Source of the DNA: Escherichia phage CMSTMSU
Reading direction: 5' to 3' (one strand)
Length of the DNA stretch: 64,000 nucleotides
Sequence record: MH494197.1
Shown here one piece after another: positions 25,705 through 31,606 of this stretch. Below the pieces are notes generated by a model. That model worked only from the letters and a program-made list of their open reading frames with translations. It was not told the DNA's origin and did no database searches. Within the stretch, counting starts at the first letter, position 1, and each line of letters opens with the position of its first letter. Made by a program: the position numbers and the translations under genes.

Positions 25705-26058
25705 TTAGTTGATCCCAGCAGGAAGATTCATACGCATAACAGACATGTCTTCAACCATTTCAGATGTACATAGTACTGCTACACATGTAGTTGCATCATT
25801 TAATCCGGCTTCATTGAATTTAGCGAATGGCACTTTTCCCTGCTTACAAAGGTCATCATAATAAGAATTTAACTTATCATGACCACCAGCATTTAGTACT
25901 ACAATAGTTTCGTGGTCATAATACCATTCATCAATAATAGTACTGAAAGCAGTACCTTCATATTCTTTAATTAGTTTTATGCCAGCATGAAATGCTTGAA
26001 TGCCAGCTTGTACACCTTGGCAGTACATGTTTGTTAAGCAATATAATTTCATTTCCAT
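25705..26058 (-). CDS. hypothetical protein
   Basis: 117 aa ORF. Confidence 0.4.
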   Translation of the reverse strand: MEMKLYCLTNMYCQGVQAGIQAFHAGIKLIKEYEGTAFSTIIDEWYYDHETIVVLNAGGHDKLNSYYDDLCKQGKVPFAKFNEAGLNDATTCVAVLCTSEMVEDMSVMRMNLPAGIN

Positions 26059-26071
26059 ACCTCTTGTTTTT

Positions 26072-26275
26072 CTACAAACCCTTTACCATCACAATGTGGA
26101 CAAGCATAATAACTGCGATAGTCTTCAGATGGAACTTGTTGTGTACCATTACATGTAGGGCACACTTTACGTGCTCCAGAAATAATACGTTCATGGTGTT
26201 CAGCTTGTTTTGCTGAATCAAAATACGACCATCTTCAGTTTGGTATTTTTCTACCATAACTTGAATTACTTTCAT
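26072..26275 (-). CDS. small zinc-ribbon protein (frameshifted)
   Basis: CPTCNG ... CPHCDGKG double CxxC in an alternative frame of ORF 26072-26275. Confidence 0.3.
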   Translation of the reverse strand: MKVIQVMVEKYQTEDGRILIQQNKLNTMNVLFLEHVKCALHVMVHNKFHLKTIAVIMLVHIVMVKGL

Positions 26276-26557
26276 TTCTATTTCCTTATAAAAATGTTAA
26301 ATCTTCAGTACTTAATTGTAATAATTTACCATCATATTCAATTTCAACATATACATTTTGGTCATAAACAGCAACTACACGACTAATAACTCCACTCTTC
26401 ACCACATTCTTTTGTAGTTGAATTCAACTGAGCAACCAATAAGTTTCTTTGATAGAATCTCACGTATTTGATTAGCATGGTCTTTTAGGATAGAATTAAT
26501 AGATTTTTTCACAACATATCTATCATTTAAGTATTTTTAACTACATCATGCATATTA

Positions 26558-27627
26558 TTACCTTTTGAAGCGGTTAAATGAGTACTCATCTTTTTCTTTA
26601 CGTAAGTATCTCATCCCACCACTTTGGGGAGTTGCAAGAGTCAAATCACCAGTTAAGAACTGACTATCAATCCAGATACGATTACCATAAATGAGTGGGT
26701 CGGATACTGCGGTATGACCACTAAAGACGCAATGGATACCATCAAGTCTAGGGACGTAATATGTGTTATTTTTCTTGCAGTAGTCGAATGTATCACGTTC
26801 CCACAAGCACTTCTCAATTATATCAGCACTAAGTGATTTTGTCCCACTAACGAAACGTTCCCATGTTGTATATTCCAATGGAACACCAGCATGAACTAGT
26901 CCAATCTTCAATCCTCGGTGATTGATTTGGATAATCATAGGGAGTTCCTTTAAGTACTGACGAAAGAACTGTATACCTGTCTCACCAACTTCATCAAGAA
27001 ATTTATCACCACCATTACTTTGCCAGCAATGATACCAATCCCTCATTGTTTCGGAGTCCACACACATCATCTCGTGGTTCCCAGCAATCATAAAACGGTT
27101 TTCACCGAAAAGGAATTCAAACAGTAGTTTGGAATTCTGGTCACCACGGTCAATAACATCACCTACACAAAAACATAGTCATTATTGGTAATGCCAAATT
27201 CTTTCTTGGTAGCATCCCACAGTTTTCCATTACCGTGTAAATCACCAACGATATATAAATCTTTATCATCCGGTACTGTAACTTCCAAAAATGTTTCATT
27301 ATTGTTCCAACCATATAATGTTAGTGTGTTTTGTAACTTGTGTACCTGCAAAAGAACCATCTTTAAGATACGTATTAACTTTGAAACGCCATTCACCACC
27401 GCTAATATACATATCAGCGATAATGTACTTCCCATAACCCTTGAGTTTATCAAACGTACTTCTTGTCCAATATACTTCGGCTTCAAATCATTAATAAAAT
27501 CATCAGCCAAAGACATAAGATATCGCAAATGTGAATAGTCGGTGTTGAACATTATTTCTTTCTCTTGAAGTGGGATATGATATCTTTTGTTATTGAGATA
27601 AAAAGATACACCATAGTTACAGGCCAA
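26558..27627 (-). CDS. Ser/Thr protein phosphatase-family metallophosphatase with N-terminal extension
   Basis: GDLHGN, GDVIDRG (alternative frame), GNHE and GH motifs; fragments 27163-27627 and 26558-27091. Confidence 0.65.
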
Positions 27628-27782
27628 ATTATAGCCATTAGTGCTGCTGATTGTAGACTCATTGCAGTTATGATTTCATCTTTGAAACATTTCCAATTCA
27701 GTACTAGAAAGTTACATATAAATGAGCAAAACGCAACAAATCCATATATTGCAAAAAGGTAGTCATTATTATTCCTCATCAA
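27552..27782 (-). CDS. small hydrophobic membrane protein
   Basis: 76 aa with two predicted transmembrane helices. Confidence 0.35.
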   Translation of the reverse strand: MMRNNNDYLFAIYGFVAFCSFICNFLVLNWKCFKDEIITAMSLQSAALMAIIWPVTMVYLFISITKDIISHFKRKK

Positions 27783-28101
27783 CTTGAATAAGATATTCTA
27801 AACTTATTTCATCACCAAAGGCAGCGGCATCAATTGCATCGTGATTGATGTATTCTACTTGTGCAATTAAACGTATACCGTATTTCATAATTTCAATAAT
27901 TCTCATTCTTGTATTGGGATTTATGTACTGGTAGTATGATTCATACTCTGGATCATCGTCCATTTCCGCATATCGGTTGATGTACTCGTCAGTAAATTTT
28001 ACTATCTTACCGACGAGTTCTGTTTCTGCACTTTTATAGAAATCATCTTTCATTTGATGCAACGCAATCAAGTACTGATTATATTGTGCAAGATGTTTCA
28101 T
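27769..28101 (-). CDS. hypothetical acidic protein
   Basis: 110 aa, D/E-rich. Confidence 0.4.
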   Translation of the reverse strand: MKHLAQYNQYLIALHQMKDDFYKSAETELVGKIVKFTDEYINRYAEMDDDPEYESYYQYINPNTRMRIIEIMKYGIRLIAQVEYINHDAIDAAAFGDEISLEYLIQVDEE

Positions 28102-28103
28102 TG

Positions 28104-28697
28104 TTAATCACAGCTACCGGAACTTGAACTAGAGCTTGAATCACAGCTAGAGCTATCATATGAACCAGTATCAGCAGAAGAGATATATGGCGTTACGATT
28201 GCTGCGGTGGTGGCTGCTGTAATAATATGGGAAGTATGGTCGTGTACCTTGTTGTGGTTCATCTTGGACTTTGTTTTATTCTTCCCTTTAGTATAGCGAG
28301 CTTTCTTTGTAGTTTTGGTGTTCTTTGGTGCTTTAGTACTTTTCGGTGCTGCTTTAGGCTTTACTTCATTAACTAAAGGAACAACAGTAACATTAACTTT
28401 AGGGTCAGATTCATCAAGTGCATTGTGAACATTCACTTGCATTTGAACTTCAACTTTAAGTTCTTCTTGTTCTTCAGGAATAACTTTTTCAGGTTCTGGT
28501 GTAACCTGATCACGTTTATCATTAATCATGAAGTTGATATTACGTTCACCTAGCACTAATAAAGTAACGATGGTGAGTACTGGGGTTAGTACTAGACTAA
28601 GTAGTACATAGCCGATGACACTACGATTGTAATTGTATGCAAGCATACCTGCAATAACTACACCAAGTACACTAATAACTGCTGCGATTGTTAACAT
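28104..28697 (-). CDS. membrane protein with Lys-rich region and Ser/Cys-rich C-terminal tail
   Basis: 197 aa intact ORF; two N-terminal TM helices, K/T/P-rich linker, C-terminus SSCDSSSSSSSGSCD. Confidence 0.45.
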   Translation of the reverse strand: MLTIAAVISVLGVVIAGMLAYNYNRSVIGYVLLSLVLTPVLTIVTLLVLGERNINFMINDKRDQVTPEPEKVIPEEQEELKVEVQMQVNVHNALDESDPKVNVTVVPLVNEVKPKAAPKSTKAPKNTKTTKKARYTKGKNKTKSKMNHNKVHDHTSHIITAATTAAIVTPYISSADTGSYDSSSCDSSSSSSSGSCD

Positions 28698-28977
28698 ATT
28701 CTACTCCTTTGTATATAAATTTACCAATATCTTCGATGTATAAACAGATTCCACCTCGATCATTTAACACAAGCCAATCACCAAAACCACAACTGATGTT
28801 GCATATATTAAATTCTTCAATACCATCCGGTGAATACGCAATGAATGGACATATTTCATCTGATATACCATTTACATAGTTATTACATATTAAATCAAAT
28901 GTATGTGAACTATAAGAATTATCAGTACTGAAAATGTGCATTAATGAACTAGATAGAATTACTATTGTTTTTCCCAC
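28672..28977 (-). CDS. hypothetical Cys-rich protein
   Basis: 101 aa ORF. Confidence 0.35.
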   Translation of the reverse strand: MGKTIVILSSSLMHIFSTDNSYSSHTFDLICNNYVNGISDEICPFIAYSPDGIEEFNICNISCGFGDWLVLNDRGGICLYIEDIGKFIYKGVEYVNNRSSY

Positions 28978-29360
28978 ATTTTTAAAAATCGTTATTCACA
29001 ACAACTACTCCATGTCAGTGTTGTAATGAAATTATATCACCGAATCAAGATATGTCTCATGAGATTCGCATTTCATCCAGATATAAACTACATGCTTCGA
29101 AATTGTTGTCAGCACTTAAACCTAAATCAACCATCAGACCACAATGCGTTCCACAGAATTTCTTTATGTATAGTTTCTTATTGTTTGTACTTAAGTCGTA
29201 TACATATTCATTTTCGAAAATAGTTTTAAATCATTACAAATACTTTTACTATCTTCATTACATCATTATGATACTCATATGGTATTCCATCTAGTTCATC
29301 AATGATAATAGCAAAACCATTGTCATAGTACTTTAGTTTATTGAATGTTTGTATATCCAT

Positions 29361-29657
29361 TTAATATATAATCTCACTTACTTCTATGGTGTAGACACCA
29401 TCATCAGTCATTAATCTAACTGCAACTTTAATATTACTAGACATTCGTGTAACTATCAATCCAATAATTATACCATTCTTTAAAGTACCATTATGGTATC
29501 TAACTTTTACTTCAGTTTTATTATCAATTAAGTATCTTCTAATTATGTGTATTTCCGTTCTAAACAGTTCTAAATAAACTTCACTATACTCCTTATCAGA
29601 ACCATCAGCACAGCTATACAATAAATGTACCTGTTCTAACAAAAGTTTTAAATTCAT
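29361..29657 (-). CDS. hypothetical protein
   Basis: 98 aa ORF. Confidence 0.35.
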   Translation of the reverse strand: MNLKLLLEQVHLLYSCADGSDKEYSEVYLELFRTEIHIIRRYLIDNKTEVKVRYHNGTLKNGIIIGLIVTRMSSNIKVAVRLMTDDGVYTIEVSEIIY

Positions 29658-30194
29658 AAGAACCTCACAGATTTAATATTACTTGTTACATGTTTAAACA
29701 CAGTGTTATCGAACTTGTAAACAATTGTATTAAGTGATTTATGAAAATTAACCTCACACTAATGCCTTGGAACCATTGATTGTACAGACCGTGGATGGTA
29801 AGTTGTTTGCTAATATCTCTTTTCATCTAAACATAGTGAACTAATACAATCATAATAGAGAGGTTCAAGAACTTTTCAGTACTAAGAAAATCGAAAGCAA
29901 GATCATCTATTTGTTTTATGTAATTGAATAAATTTTGATAGTACTCATTCATTGTCAATCCTCTTGAATTTAGCATTATTCGAATAAGTATATGAATGTC
30001 CAAAATCATTTACACCATGCACATTCAATACACCGTCGATGAAATAGATTCGGTCAATGGTGAGTTCACGTTTATAATCCGAATCATCATACCAGCACAG
30101 AACACGAATACCTTTATACTTTGTAGTTAGCTCTTTTCTAATGTAACTAAGTACTCGATATAACTTTTGAATAGCTCTAAGTCCTGCTCAAACA

Positions 30195-30455
30195 TCATTG
30201 TTCCTCGTATAATTCCATGTCATCAACTCCAACTTGGCGAATTGCAGTACTTCTTTTAAATGTACCTTTTTCATATAAACATACAGTTAAACGTATTTCA
30301 CACTTCAATGCACTGTAATAAATCATATCAATAACACCATATGTTTCATACATTTCTAAGTATACATTTCGTCCTAAGTACTTTTCTTCTAAATCAGTAA
30401 TTAGACTATTGATAAGATTACCTATCTGTGTTATATCTGTGTGAAATTTATCCAT
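30195..30455 (-). CDS. hypothetical protein
   Basis: 86 aa ORF. Confidence 0.35.
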   Translation of the reverse strand: MDKFHTDITQIGNLINSLITDLEEKYLGRNVYLEMYETYGVIDMIYYSALKCEIRLTVCLYEKGTFKRSTAIRQVGVDDMELYEEQ

Positions 30456-30644
30456 TACAATAATCCTCTCACATAAAACATTGATGAAAATAGATAATCT
30501 TCAGTACTGGAATTTAGTAGTTTATCAAAACTATAATTTTTATGCTTATTTTCATACAAAGACATTCTATAGTATCGTTCTATATTTTCTAAGTAGTCTT
30601 TTCGTAATAACATCTGTGTTGTTACATTCACTATAATGTACCTT

Positions 30645-30678
30645 AAAAGAAAAAGGGACCAATATATGATCCCTTTGT
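30645..30678 (-). terminator. terminator-like hairpin after pseT
   Basis: AAAGGGA - 11 nt loop - TCCCTTT with flanking A/T runs. Confidence 0.4.
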
Positions 30679-30679
30679 A

Positions 30680-31606
30680 TTAGAAATTTCCTTCAGCCAC
30701 TTGGAAAACTTTCAACCCAAGTAGCTTACGCCACATGAACACAACTTGATTGCGGTCATCATATACCTTTTAACATCGTAATGATCAACCACATTTTTCA
30801 TGTACAGGTCGAATTTGACAACATCATCAGGACGTTTATCATCAATGTCTCGCATAAACAATGCATCGTAAGGAATACCCCAATTCTTAAGCCACTGTTC
30901 GGTATCAGCACGACACCCTTCAGTACGCCCACTCATGACGATAATCTTGCGTTTATGAAAACTGCTTCTGCGATAATAGACAAAATAACTTCTTCGTCTG
31001 GTGTATCCGAGTACAGTACTTTCATCGAACGGGTTACGTCCCCATTTATGAGCAAGAGTACCGTCGATATCAACGATAATAGCAGCTTCTCGTGAATTAC
31101 CATAGTAACCAATGTGTAATGCCTTACTATAATAGTACGTATCTGCCATAGTGTCAATGATATTATCTTGTACTGAACGCTCACGCTGGAGGTTATATTT
31201 CTTACAAAGTTTTACGAACTCTTTAATCTTAAAGAATTCATGAACATCTGCACCACGGTCTTCATTAGGTACAAAATCATCATAGAAGTTCTTTTCTTTG
31301 TAATCATAACCATTATCTATAGCCCATACTTTCCATAGATTACGGAAATGTTGTTTAAGGTTTGTATCGGATATGATGATGTTCCAACCATTCTCTGCTG
31401 CTGAATTTGCTGCACTGAACTGTAAATTAGTTACGTACTGCTCATTAGCATCGTTGAATTTGTAAGCATCATGTGACCCAGCCATAGATTCACGAATATC
31501 ATCACGGTTGATGTTGATAGTCTTGGATTTGGCTTTTTAATCTCTTGCACTGCCCATGTAGTTTTACCACACCGTGCAATCCAACTGTTAGTGTGATAGT
31601 TGGCAT
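30680..31606 (-). CDS. pseT: polynucleotide 5'-kinase/3'-phosphatase
   Basis: P-loop region TLTVGLHG..GKTTWA (1-nt deletion), IISDTNL, HAD motif IVDIDGTLA, VMSGR, RKDDVVK all parallel T4 Pnk; RBS GAGGA. Confidence 0.85.

Follow-up and report, generated by a model that had tools for sequence, protein, structure and literature searches.

The phi29 protein p16.7 ties replicating phage DNA to the membrane, and ZipA tethers FtsZ via a long charged/PQ linker; in both, one transmembrane helix anchors the N-terminus, and beyond a flexible region a folded C-terminal domain does the binding at the cytoplasmic face. In TonB the spacer takes the form (Glu-Pro)n(Lys-Pro)n, and class II holins combine a pair of transmembrane helices with a charged C-terminus. 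Disordered proteins with a membrane anchor rank among the most difficult to annotate. For most jumbo-phage genes no function is known; in phage phAPEC6 this applies to 83% of the predicted products (PMC7247149). Here, a protein predicted to be of this type is described from a 64,000-nucleotide stretch of Escherichia phage CMSTMSU (MH494197.1), referred to below as the window. It is encoded by a complete open reading frame (ORF) on the minus strand, 28104-28697, of 197 amino acids (aa) as read in the window and, judged by alignment with its relatives, 198 aa in its true length. Two predicted helices precede a predicted disordered chain that ends in a linear motif, and neither sequence nor fold similarity links the protein to p16.7 or ZipA; the likeness is a tether analogy only.

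The ORF starts with ATG, and its letters match exactly the sequence quoted in a first-pass annotation of the window, which had been made from the sequence alone. At 100% identity, the product matches a protein annotated as hypothetical in Escherichia phage CMSTMSU. A strong, canonical Shine-Dalgarno sequence, AAGGAG (28704-28709, minus strand), is read 6 nt upstream of the ATG. The ATG falls within the 3′ end of the upstream gene with an overlap of 26 nt (28672-28697), and the stop codon lies 2 nt from the next ATG, in a tightly packed minus-strand array. Homologues were detected by tblastn in 34 phage records, all of them Asteriusvirus or unclassified close relatives, and every Asteriusvirus genome has the gene. 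The match to PHROG 29057 (unknown function) has E = 4.8e-60 and aligns aa 6-197 with profile positions 8-209 of 209, which makes the protein a member of that family. The gene is counted as real because of the strong ribosome-binding site, the tight operon packing, the homologues in 34 records and the PHROG match. Conserved in Asteriusvirus and in further jumbo myoviruses that have this local gene order, it is a true accessory gene.

CMSTMSU belongs to Asteriusvirus (121Q/PBECO4 group). The source region is 98% identical to fEgEco12, Ecwhy_1 and WPEC5, and ~84% to 121Q and PBECO4, all of the genus Asteriusvirus. The named homologues (121Q gp451, phAPEC6 gp366, fEgEco12 g194) occupy the same genome position and are homologous over the full length at 53-95% identity, the sole substantive difference being an 11-aa frame-shift artefact in the window. 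A tblastn search with the C-terminal half, in which the tail was masked, gave Asteriusvirus matches only. Within the 64-kb window, neither a paralogue of the 197-aa ORF nor a second ORF bearing the Ser tail was found.

Hydropathy analysis revealed two strong hydrophobic segments at ~aa 1-20 and 27-50, and a third, weak one at aa 157-172. The first two correspond to transmembrane helix 1 (aa 2-23; 28629-28694) and transmembrane helix 2 (aa 27-50; 28548-28619), the latter preceded by the conserved turn N-Y-N-R-S; together they form a hairpin module (PHROG 9201/25625). AlphaFold2 (AF2), run on the shallow alignment A2 of 11 sequences, gave a helical hairpin of residues 2-23 and 27-62 with pLDDT ~74, and aa 64-197 without secondary structure at pLDDT <50. 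The two N-terminal transmembrane helices proposed in the first-pass annotation are thus seen both by hydropathy and in the AF2 model. The low pLDDT (<50) of the ~145 residues after the hairpin is consistent with their being intrinsically disordered.

Composition divides the chain into four parts, all on the minus strand. An acidic Glu/Val/Pro-rich disordered block (aa 53-112; 28362-28541; net charge -8) holds length-variable EVKE repeats. It is followed by a Lys-rich block (aa 113-150; 28248-28361; net charge +15) with the conserved core KKARYTKGKNK. The Ala/Thr-rich segment IITAATTAAIVTPYI (aa 157-172; 28182-28229), with a hydropathy of 1.1-1.6, is too weak for an autonomous transmembrane helix; it is kept in most relatives, the distant proteins P0016 and P0017 being exceptions. 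The Ser/Asp/Cys tail (aa 173-197; 28107-28181; net charge -4) ends ...SYDSSSCDSSSSSSSGSCD-COOH, a conserved C-terminal motif common to Vequintavirinae proteins.

The unusual low-complexity architecture noted earlier is real. With the long ORFs of the window itself as the reference composition, 14 Lys in the 38 residues of the Lys-rich stretch give a binomial P of ~6e-8, and 14 Ser in the 25 residues of the tail a P of ~3e-10. Among minus-strand reading-frame fragments of at least 60 aa in the window, no other 25-residue window contains more than 9 Ser. Five different Ser codons, from both codon families, encode the tail, and Tandem Repeats Finder reported nothing there, so that no tandem repeat underlies the tail at the DNA level and the low complexity belongs to the protein, not to a microsatellite. 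The K/T/P-rich segment named in the first-pass annotation likewise holds good for its Lys content, whereas the last four residues quoted for it, TKSK, come from the frame-shift artefact.

The architecture is also conserved. Alignments A1 and A2 keep the hairpin with the turn GMLAYNYNRS, the core KKARYTKGKNK, the Ala/Thr segment and the tail SYDSSS.DS..SS.S..D. The consensus of the tail motif is S-Y-D-S-(S/G)-S-...-S-(C)-D-COOH, in which Ser, Tyr and the C-terminal Asp are invariant positions; the penultimate Cys and the terminal Asp are widely kept. The number of Cys in the tail is usually two, with one in ph0011 and P0005 and none in P0004 and P0017. A tail missing from homologues would have spoken against the earlier description; it is present in all high-quality homologues. 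Repeat-length variation among related phages, which the annotation had suggested looking for, exists and is modest. One element is the number of EVKE copies in the acidic linker, from about one in phAPEC6 (shortest; locus L005, 1501-2118) to four to five in BF17 (longest; locus L008, 1501-2154). The other is a 13-17-aa insertion, YNNDDYSDYSRHS, ahead of the tail; 121Q- and Turkey5-type proteins have it, and those of the CMSTMSU/fEgEco12 type and of phage A4 lack it.

Selection was estimated as dN/dS by the Nei-Gojobori method for six pairs. Whole-gene values were 0.17-0.49, with synonymous sites near or at saturation in the distant pairs. The tail gave 0.05-0.17 in four informative pairs and ~1.08 in the only close pair, fEgEco12 versus ph0011, because ph0011 has altered its last residues. 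For the Lys block the values were 0.04-0.26 within the genus and 0.51 versus the distant phage A4. The tail is under purifying selection in most comparisons.

A natural deletion of 1,831 bp, with ~11 nt of microhomology at the junction, is seen in TH47 (MT446416.1; locus L002, 2796-2806; window ~26450-28390). It joins aa 1-~103 to the homologue of fEgEco12 g199, with loss of the C-terminal half and of the g195-g198 homologues, four genes that include a phosphatase.

Relatives beyond the genus were sought in an exhaustive profile search of 1.84 billion representative proteins, which returned 42 matches at E<1e-3. The full architecture is found in three distant proteins, P0018 (gp397 of the 350-kb Klebsiella phage RCIP0023) and P0016 and P0017 from metagenomic contigs; identity to these jumbo-phage proteins is ~25-34%. 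About 35 matches (in the range P0019-P0054) cover the N-terminal hairpin only, some of them free-standing proteins of 48-60 aa. Other carriers have the hairpin fused to zinc ribbons, SHOCT, extra transmembrane helices or other tails. In P0042 a zinc ribbon follows helix 2 (UPF0547, 31.4 bits, above the Pfam cut-off), and zinc-ribbon-like Cys motifs are found at the same place in P0051, P0033, P0036 and P0023. The module corresponds to PHROG 9201, 25625 and 8436, all of unknown function. The likeness extends over the first ~50 residues as helix - A..x(N/G)R(S/N)..G(Y/W) - LS..SP - helix - LG; most relatives end after the hairpin or bear other tails, whereas the Lys block and the Ser tail are found only in the jumbo-phage family. 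The hairpin module matched no Pfam family, and the clusters looked up for ten of its proteins bore no informative names. Judged by these profile matches, the hairpin is a widespread portable module, and it may merit a family definition of its own.

The tail has a distribution of its own. One match, P0022 (E = 6.5e-6), covers the C-terminal part only, and its relatives are hypothetical proteins of Vequintavirinae. In phiTE_004 of Pectobacterium phage phiTE, QUL77306 of Escherichia phage UPEC06 and PHROG 13005, the C-terminal ~50 residues resemble those of the present protein: a basic stretch leads into a hydrophobic run of small residues (AT.AAV), and Ser/Tyr/Asp repeats with the ending SSSSCD-COOH follow. 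These proteins differ in having no transmembrane hairpin and another, amphipathic N-terminus, and their genes have different neighbours with no common gene order. Aligned by hhalign, the jumbo-phage and Vequintavirinae families match over the last 48 columns with 97% probability and E = 4.9e-11, statistics that, like those of HMMER, low-complexity sequence can inflate. A regular expression for the tail, run over a six-frame translation of 260 kb that included 98 kb of the unrelated phage JSE, picked out a single ORF in each homologous locus and nothing besides. Candidate carriers of the tail are PHROGs 13684, 17348, 10669, 14698 and 13005. A partner gene common to the jumbo and Vequintavirinae loci was sought and none was found.

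These similarities point to the tail as a specific C-terminal motif shared across phage lineages, and as a portable motif held in common with Vequintavirinae proteins it is the most interesting by-product of the analysis. A further proposal, speculative and of low probability in our estimate, is that the C-terminal ~25-50 residues are a portable short linear motif on unrelated proteins of at least two enterobacterial myovirus lineages, jumbo Asteriusvirus with its related phages and Vequintavirinae. Its target would be a single, specific host factor or modification system; examples would be Ser phosphorylation undone by the co-located phage phosphatase, or a host protein that reads C-termini. 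In the jumbo phages the motif would bring that factor to the inner membrane. If the tail does bind a host factor or is phospho-regulated, it would represent a new phage-host interface; otherwise the protein simply adds to the number of accessory membrane proteins. Three parts lend themselves to experiment, namely the tail peptide, the Lys block and the hairpin.

The reading favoured here, held tentatively, is that of a cytoplasm-facing tether or recruiter at the inner membrane. The host inner membrane is the natural location to infer, because relatives keep the hydrophobic hairpin and the virion proteome of phAPEC6 does not include the protein: gp366 is missing from the 62 proteins listed (PMC7247149), which is weak negative evidence, membrane proteins being hard to detect. 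Topology, binding roles and biological purpose would be as follows. The hairpin, the first ~50 residues, would insert N-in/C-in with both ends cytoplasmic, and the ~145-residue disordered chain would extend from the host membrane into the cytoplasm as a flexible leash. Its histone-H1-like Lys block could bind a polyanionic surface such as DNA, RNA or anionic phospholipid, and a partner from host or phage could recognise the terminal Ser/Tyr/Asp...Cys-Asp-COOH motif. Zinc ribbons fused directly after helix 2 in several relatives of the module argue for a cytoplasmic position of this segment, and a cytoplasmic chain is favoured because a +15 Lys block is more easily left in the cytoplasm than exported. 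The charge of this block also agrees with the positive-inside rule.

The following observations weigh against such a tether. In the hairpin family as a whole, ~1.7 positive charges fall in the turn between the helices, and the 15 residues after helix 2 carry +2.3/-2.5; by this comparison the positive-inside rule alone is ambiguous. The order of a Glu/Pro-rich and then a Lys/Pro-rich stretch resembles periplasm-spanning spacers such as that of TonB, and exactly two Cys in most tails would fit a periplasmic disulfide. Membrane-adjacent Lys-rich segments may simply bind lipid or fix topology. Searches of Pfam, NCBIfam, PADLOC and PDB sequences gave no homology to a protein of known function, and the inflation of profile statistics by low complexity has been mentioned. 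The TH47 deletion suggests that the C-terminal half would be dispensable for plaque formation, if that unverified record is correct.

An unlikely alternative, yet the one that fares best beside the cytoplasmic tether, is a periplasm-facing envelope protein, in which the hairpin would lie N-out/C-out or the Ala/Thr segment would pack on it as a third helix. The tail or the whole chain would then be a TonB/TolA-like spacer with its two Cys in a disulfide, serving envelope remodelling or superinfection exclusion. Several features suit this arrangement. The turn between the helices conserves its positive charge, with an invariant Arg and the ~1.7 K/R average of the module family, and in most family members the only two Cys of the protein are those of the tail. 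The succession of basic block, hydrophobic segment and acidic/uncharged tail is a design that proton-motive-force-driven tail insertion would use, and the small two-helix membrane protein g196 is co-conserved downstream. The linker TPEPE..VIPE followed by KPKAAPK recalls the TonB spacer, likewise an acidic Glu/Pro-rich and then a basic Lys/Pro-rich stretch after a membrane anchor. The present protein differs from TonB in its two helices instead of one and in the membrane side it would occupy, opposite to that of TonB. It has no match to TonB_C, no other periplasmic domain was found, and the AF2 model has no folded C-terminal domain. The zinc ribbons directly after helix 2 in several module relatives do not fit a periplasmic chain, and the +15 Lys block would be unfavourable to translocate. 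The third segment is weak (1.1-1.6), is missing in P0016 and P0017 and is not a helix in the AF2 model.

It is improbable that the hairpin itself is the effector, whether holin-like, membrane-depolarising or active in superinfection exclusion like T4 Imm, with the disordered tail regulating or timing it. The hairpin is the most widely spread part of the protein, occurring as free-standing proteins of 48-60 aa in phage and metagenomic data, and TH47 retains it while the tail is lost. The layout of class II holins, two transmembrane helices and a charged C-terminal region, is shared by the protein and is a generic feature. The other holin traits are wanting: the length is 198 aa against ~60-150 aa, no holin profile matched, and no endolysin was found in 48 kb around the gene in fEgEco12, where the surroundings are devoted to nucleic-acid metabolism and no lysis or structural block was seen. 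The T4 Imm type (PF14373, Imm_superinfect) gave no Pfam match at E<=1. In most comparisons, moreover, the dN/dS of the tail and the Lys block lies below that of the hairpin.

The first-pass annotation had offered a metal-binding or envelope-associated role. Association with the envelope can be upheld by inference from the conserved hairpin, whereas metal binding is poorly supported, the Cys not being invariant, and we hold it to be quite doubtful. In such a role, Cys, Asp and Ser of the tail would chelate a metal ion, possibly across the subunits of an oligomer; most members do have two Cys and several Asp in the last 13-35 residues, and the penultimate Cys and terminal Asp are widely kept. 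Set against this are the members without Cys (P0004, P0017) or with a single one (ph0011, P0005), the lack of His or a CxxC pattern in the tail and the absence of any match to a metal-binding family. Two thiols per chain are, besides, too few for a site unless the protein is oligomeric.

Regulation of the tail by phosphorylation, with Ser phosphorylated in infection and reset by the neighbouring phage Ser/Thr phosphatase, is about equally doubtful. Wherever jumbo lineages were examined, at most five genes (0-5) separate the gene from a Metallophos phosphatase downstream; in RCIP0023 the two adjoin, and TH47 lost the tail and the phosphatase together. The proximity may be mere conserved gene order, no kinase was identified, and the Vequintavirinae carriers of the tail have no phosphatase in the 6 kb inspected.

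Other database candidates were examined and set aside. The matches to DUF7206, GAGA_bind, SpoIIIAF, Mgp-operon protein 3 and ribosomal S25 are sub-threshold or compositional. For Pfam DUF7206 (PF23836) the scores are 18.7 bits with the window protein and 19.2 bits with the corrected fEgEco12 protein, below the gathering cut-off of 25.6; aa 128-197 weakly match the C-terminal 60 profile positions (E = 0.002-0.003), whereas 121Q-type and Vequintavirinae proteins do not match and only 4 of 11 family members do so at E<1. The match is probably compositional. In fEgEco12 the homologue (g194, XBS49276.1; locus L001, 2501-3097) is labelled 'ribosome biogenesis protein Nop10'. No Nop10 was found in Pfam at E<=1 or in NCBIfam, and PDB profile matches were limited to weak Lys-rich ribosomal tails at E>3. 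The label is spurious and probably stems from the Lys-rich composition. Among PADLOC defence and anti-defence models the best match was a generic 1TM effector model at E = 0.51. The phAPEC6 record notes a similarity to the T4-like phage JSE; a search of its first 98 kb in six frames with the family HMM (hidden Markov model) and the tail regular expression gave a best E of 0.029, to the scaffold protein gp68, and that note too probably reflects composition. A modified peptide like lanthipeptides or microcin B17 was likewise rejected, the locus having no modification enzymes and the product being a 198-aa membrane protein in which Cys is not invariant.

That the ORF is spurious or decaying, with a low-complexity tail produced by an error-prone assembly (~1 indel per 200 nt in the window, two of them within the ORF), has practically no probability left and is refuted by the homologues, since more than 30 genomes, each sequenced independently, carry both the ORF and its tail, and the differences among them include synonymous changes, at a dN/dS far below 1.

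The assembly errors themselves are extensive. The CMSTMSU sequence was assembled with Canu from MinION R9.4 reads called by Albacore 2.1.3, and no polishing step is described (PMC6256653). When 5.2 kb of the window (26000-31200) was aligned to fEgEco12, 26 indel positions were found, that is, ~1 per 200 nt, nearly all of them 1-2-nt deletions of the window in homopolymer or dinucleotide runs. This pattern is attributed to the unpolished nanopore assembly, and deletions of this kind probably occur across the whole 64-kb window. ORF lengths and local protein sequences in the window are unreliable. The practical value of the analysis lies in flagging the window as an unpolished nanopore assembly and in exposing the published 'Nop10' annotation.

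Two deletions lie within the ORF, A5 to A4 at ~28277 and ACACAC to ACAC at ~28245, 33 nt apart. The 197-aa ORF stays open by luck because the 1-nt and 2-nt deletions sum to 3 nt. Both are deletions relative to all close relatives. Between them, an out-of-frame stretch of 11 aa (aa 141-151; 28245-28277, minus strand) is an assembly artefact: TKSKMNHNKV in the window is an out-of-frame reading of NKVQDEPQQGT. The more distant Asteriusvirus phages ph0011 and 121Q have the fEgEco12 frame here. By this alignment the true protein is of 198 aa with NKVQDEPQQGT at the artefact site, and the corrected ORF is expected to read ...KNKNKVQDEPQQGTHDH.... The ORF described earlier as intact is thus present as quoted, and its integrity is only apparent.

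Immediately downstream lies the gene of an acidic 110-aa protein (27769-28101, minus strand; fEgEco12 g195, PHROG 29135). In Asteriusvirus and metagenomic contig L013 the next gene encodes a g195 homologue; in contig L015 the downstream ORF shows no significant similarity to it. The second downstream neighbour (27552-27766, minus strand) corresponds to fEgEco12 g196, of 71 aa, and has two hydrophobic segments. The adjoining small membrane protein that the first-pass annotation placed at 27552-27782 is this one and is real; the first ~9 residues of the ORF so delimited are an artefact of a T6 to T5 deletion at ~27757, which corrupts the N-terminus in the window.

Gene order around the locus is conserved. 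In all jumbo lineages examined the gene lies 0-5 small genes upstream of the Metallophos phosphatase, and downstream of the polynucleotide kinase/phosphatase gene (PNK) where PNK is in view; in Klebsiella phage RCIP0023 it directly adjoins the Metallophos (NinI-like) phosphatase. A DnaJ-like zinc-finger gene and/or DNA ligase then follow in most loci. The surrounding block comprises PNK, phosphatase, DNA ligase, dCMP deaminase, Sir2, NUDIX, PhoH, NrdD/G and many small genes of no known function. The Ser/Thr phosphatase (NinI-like), 744 bp and intact in relatives, is split in the window at 26558-27627 into ORFs of 177 aa and 154 aa by indels at ~27291, ~27173 and 27017-27047, and is an apparent pseudogene made by assembly error. 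PNK (30712-31485) is a 257-aa ORF in the window as against 933 bp in fEgEco12 and 121Q; indels lie inside it at ~31008, ~30961 and ~30771, and its C-terminal part in the window is probably frame-shifted as well.

A scan for promoters gave no signal above chance. Of the hairpins resembling intrinsic terminators in the 7 kb scanned, the best lies just downstream of PNK on the minus strand (30652-30676) and has a 10-bp stem followed by a T-run. The transcription unit that holds the 197-aa ORF may begin there. Weak similarity around a motif such as KYIGQEV/LIGKKVKF is seen among the small neighbours, namely the g195, g197 and g199 homologues, A4_443/445 and L015_up. The carriers lie at 27769-28101, ~27300-27552 and 26286-26512 in the window and among the neighbours in L010, L013 and L015. 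This weak sequence similarity suggests that the g195/g197/g199-type small proteins are a paralogous family repeated along the gene block.

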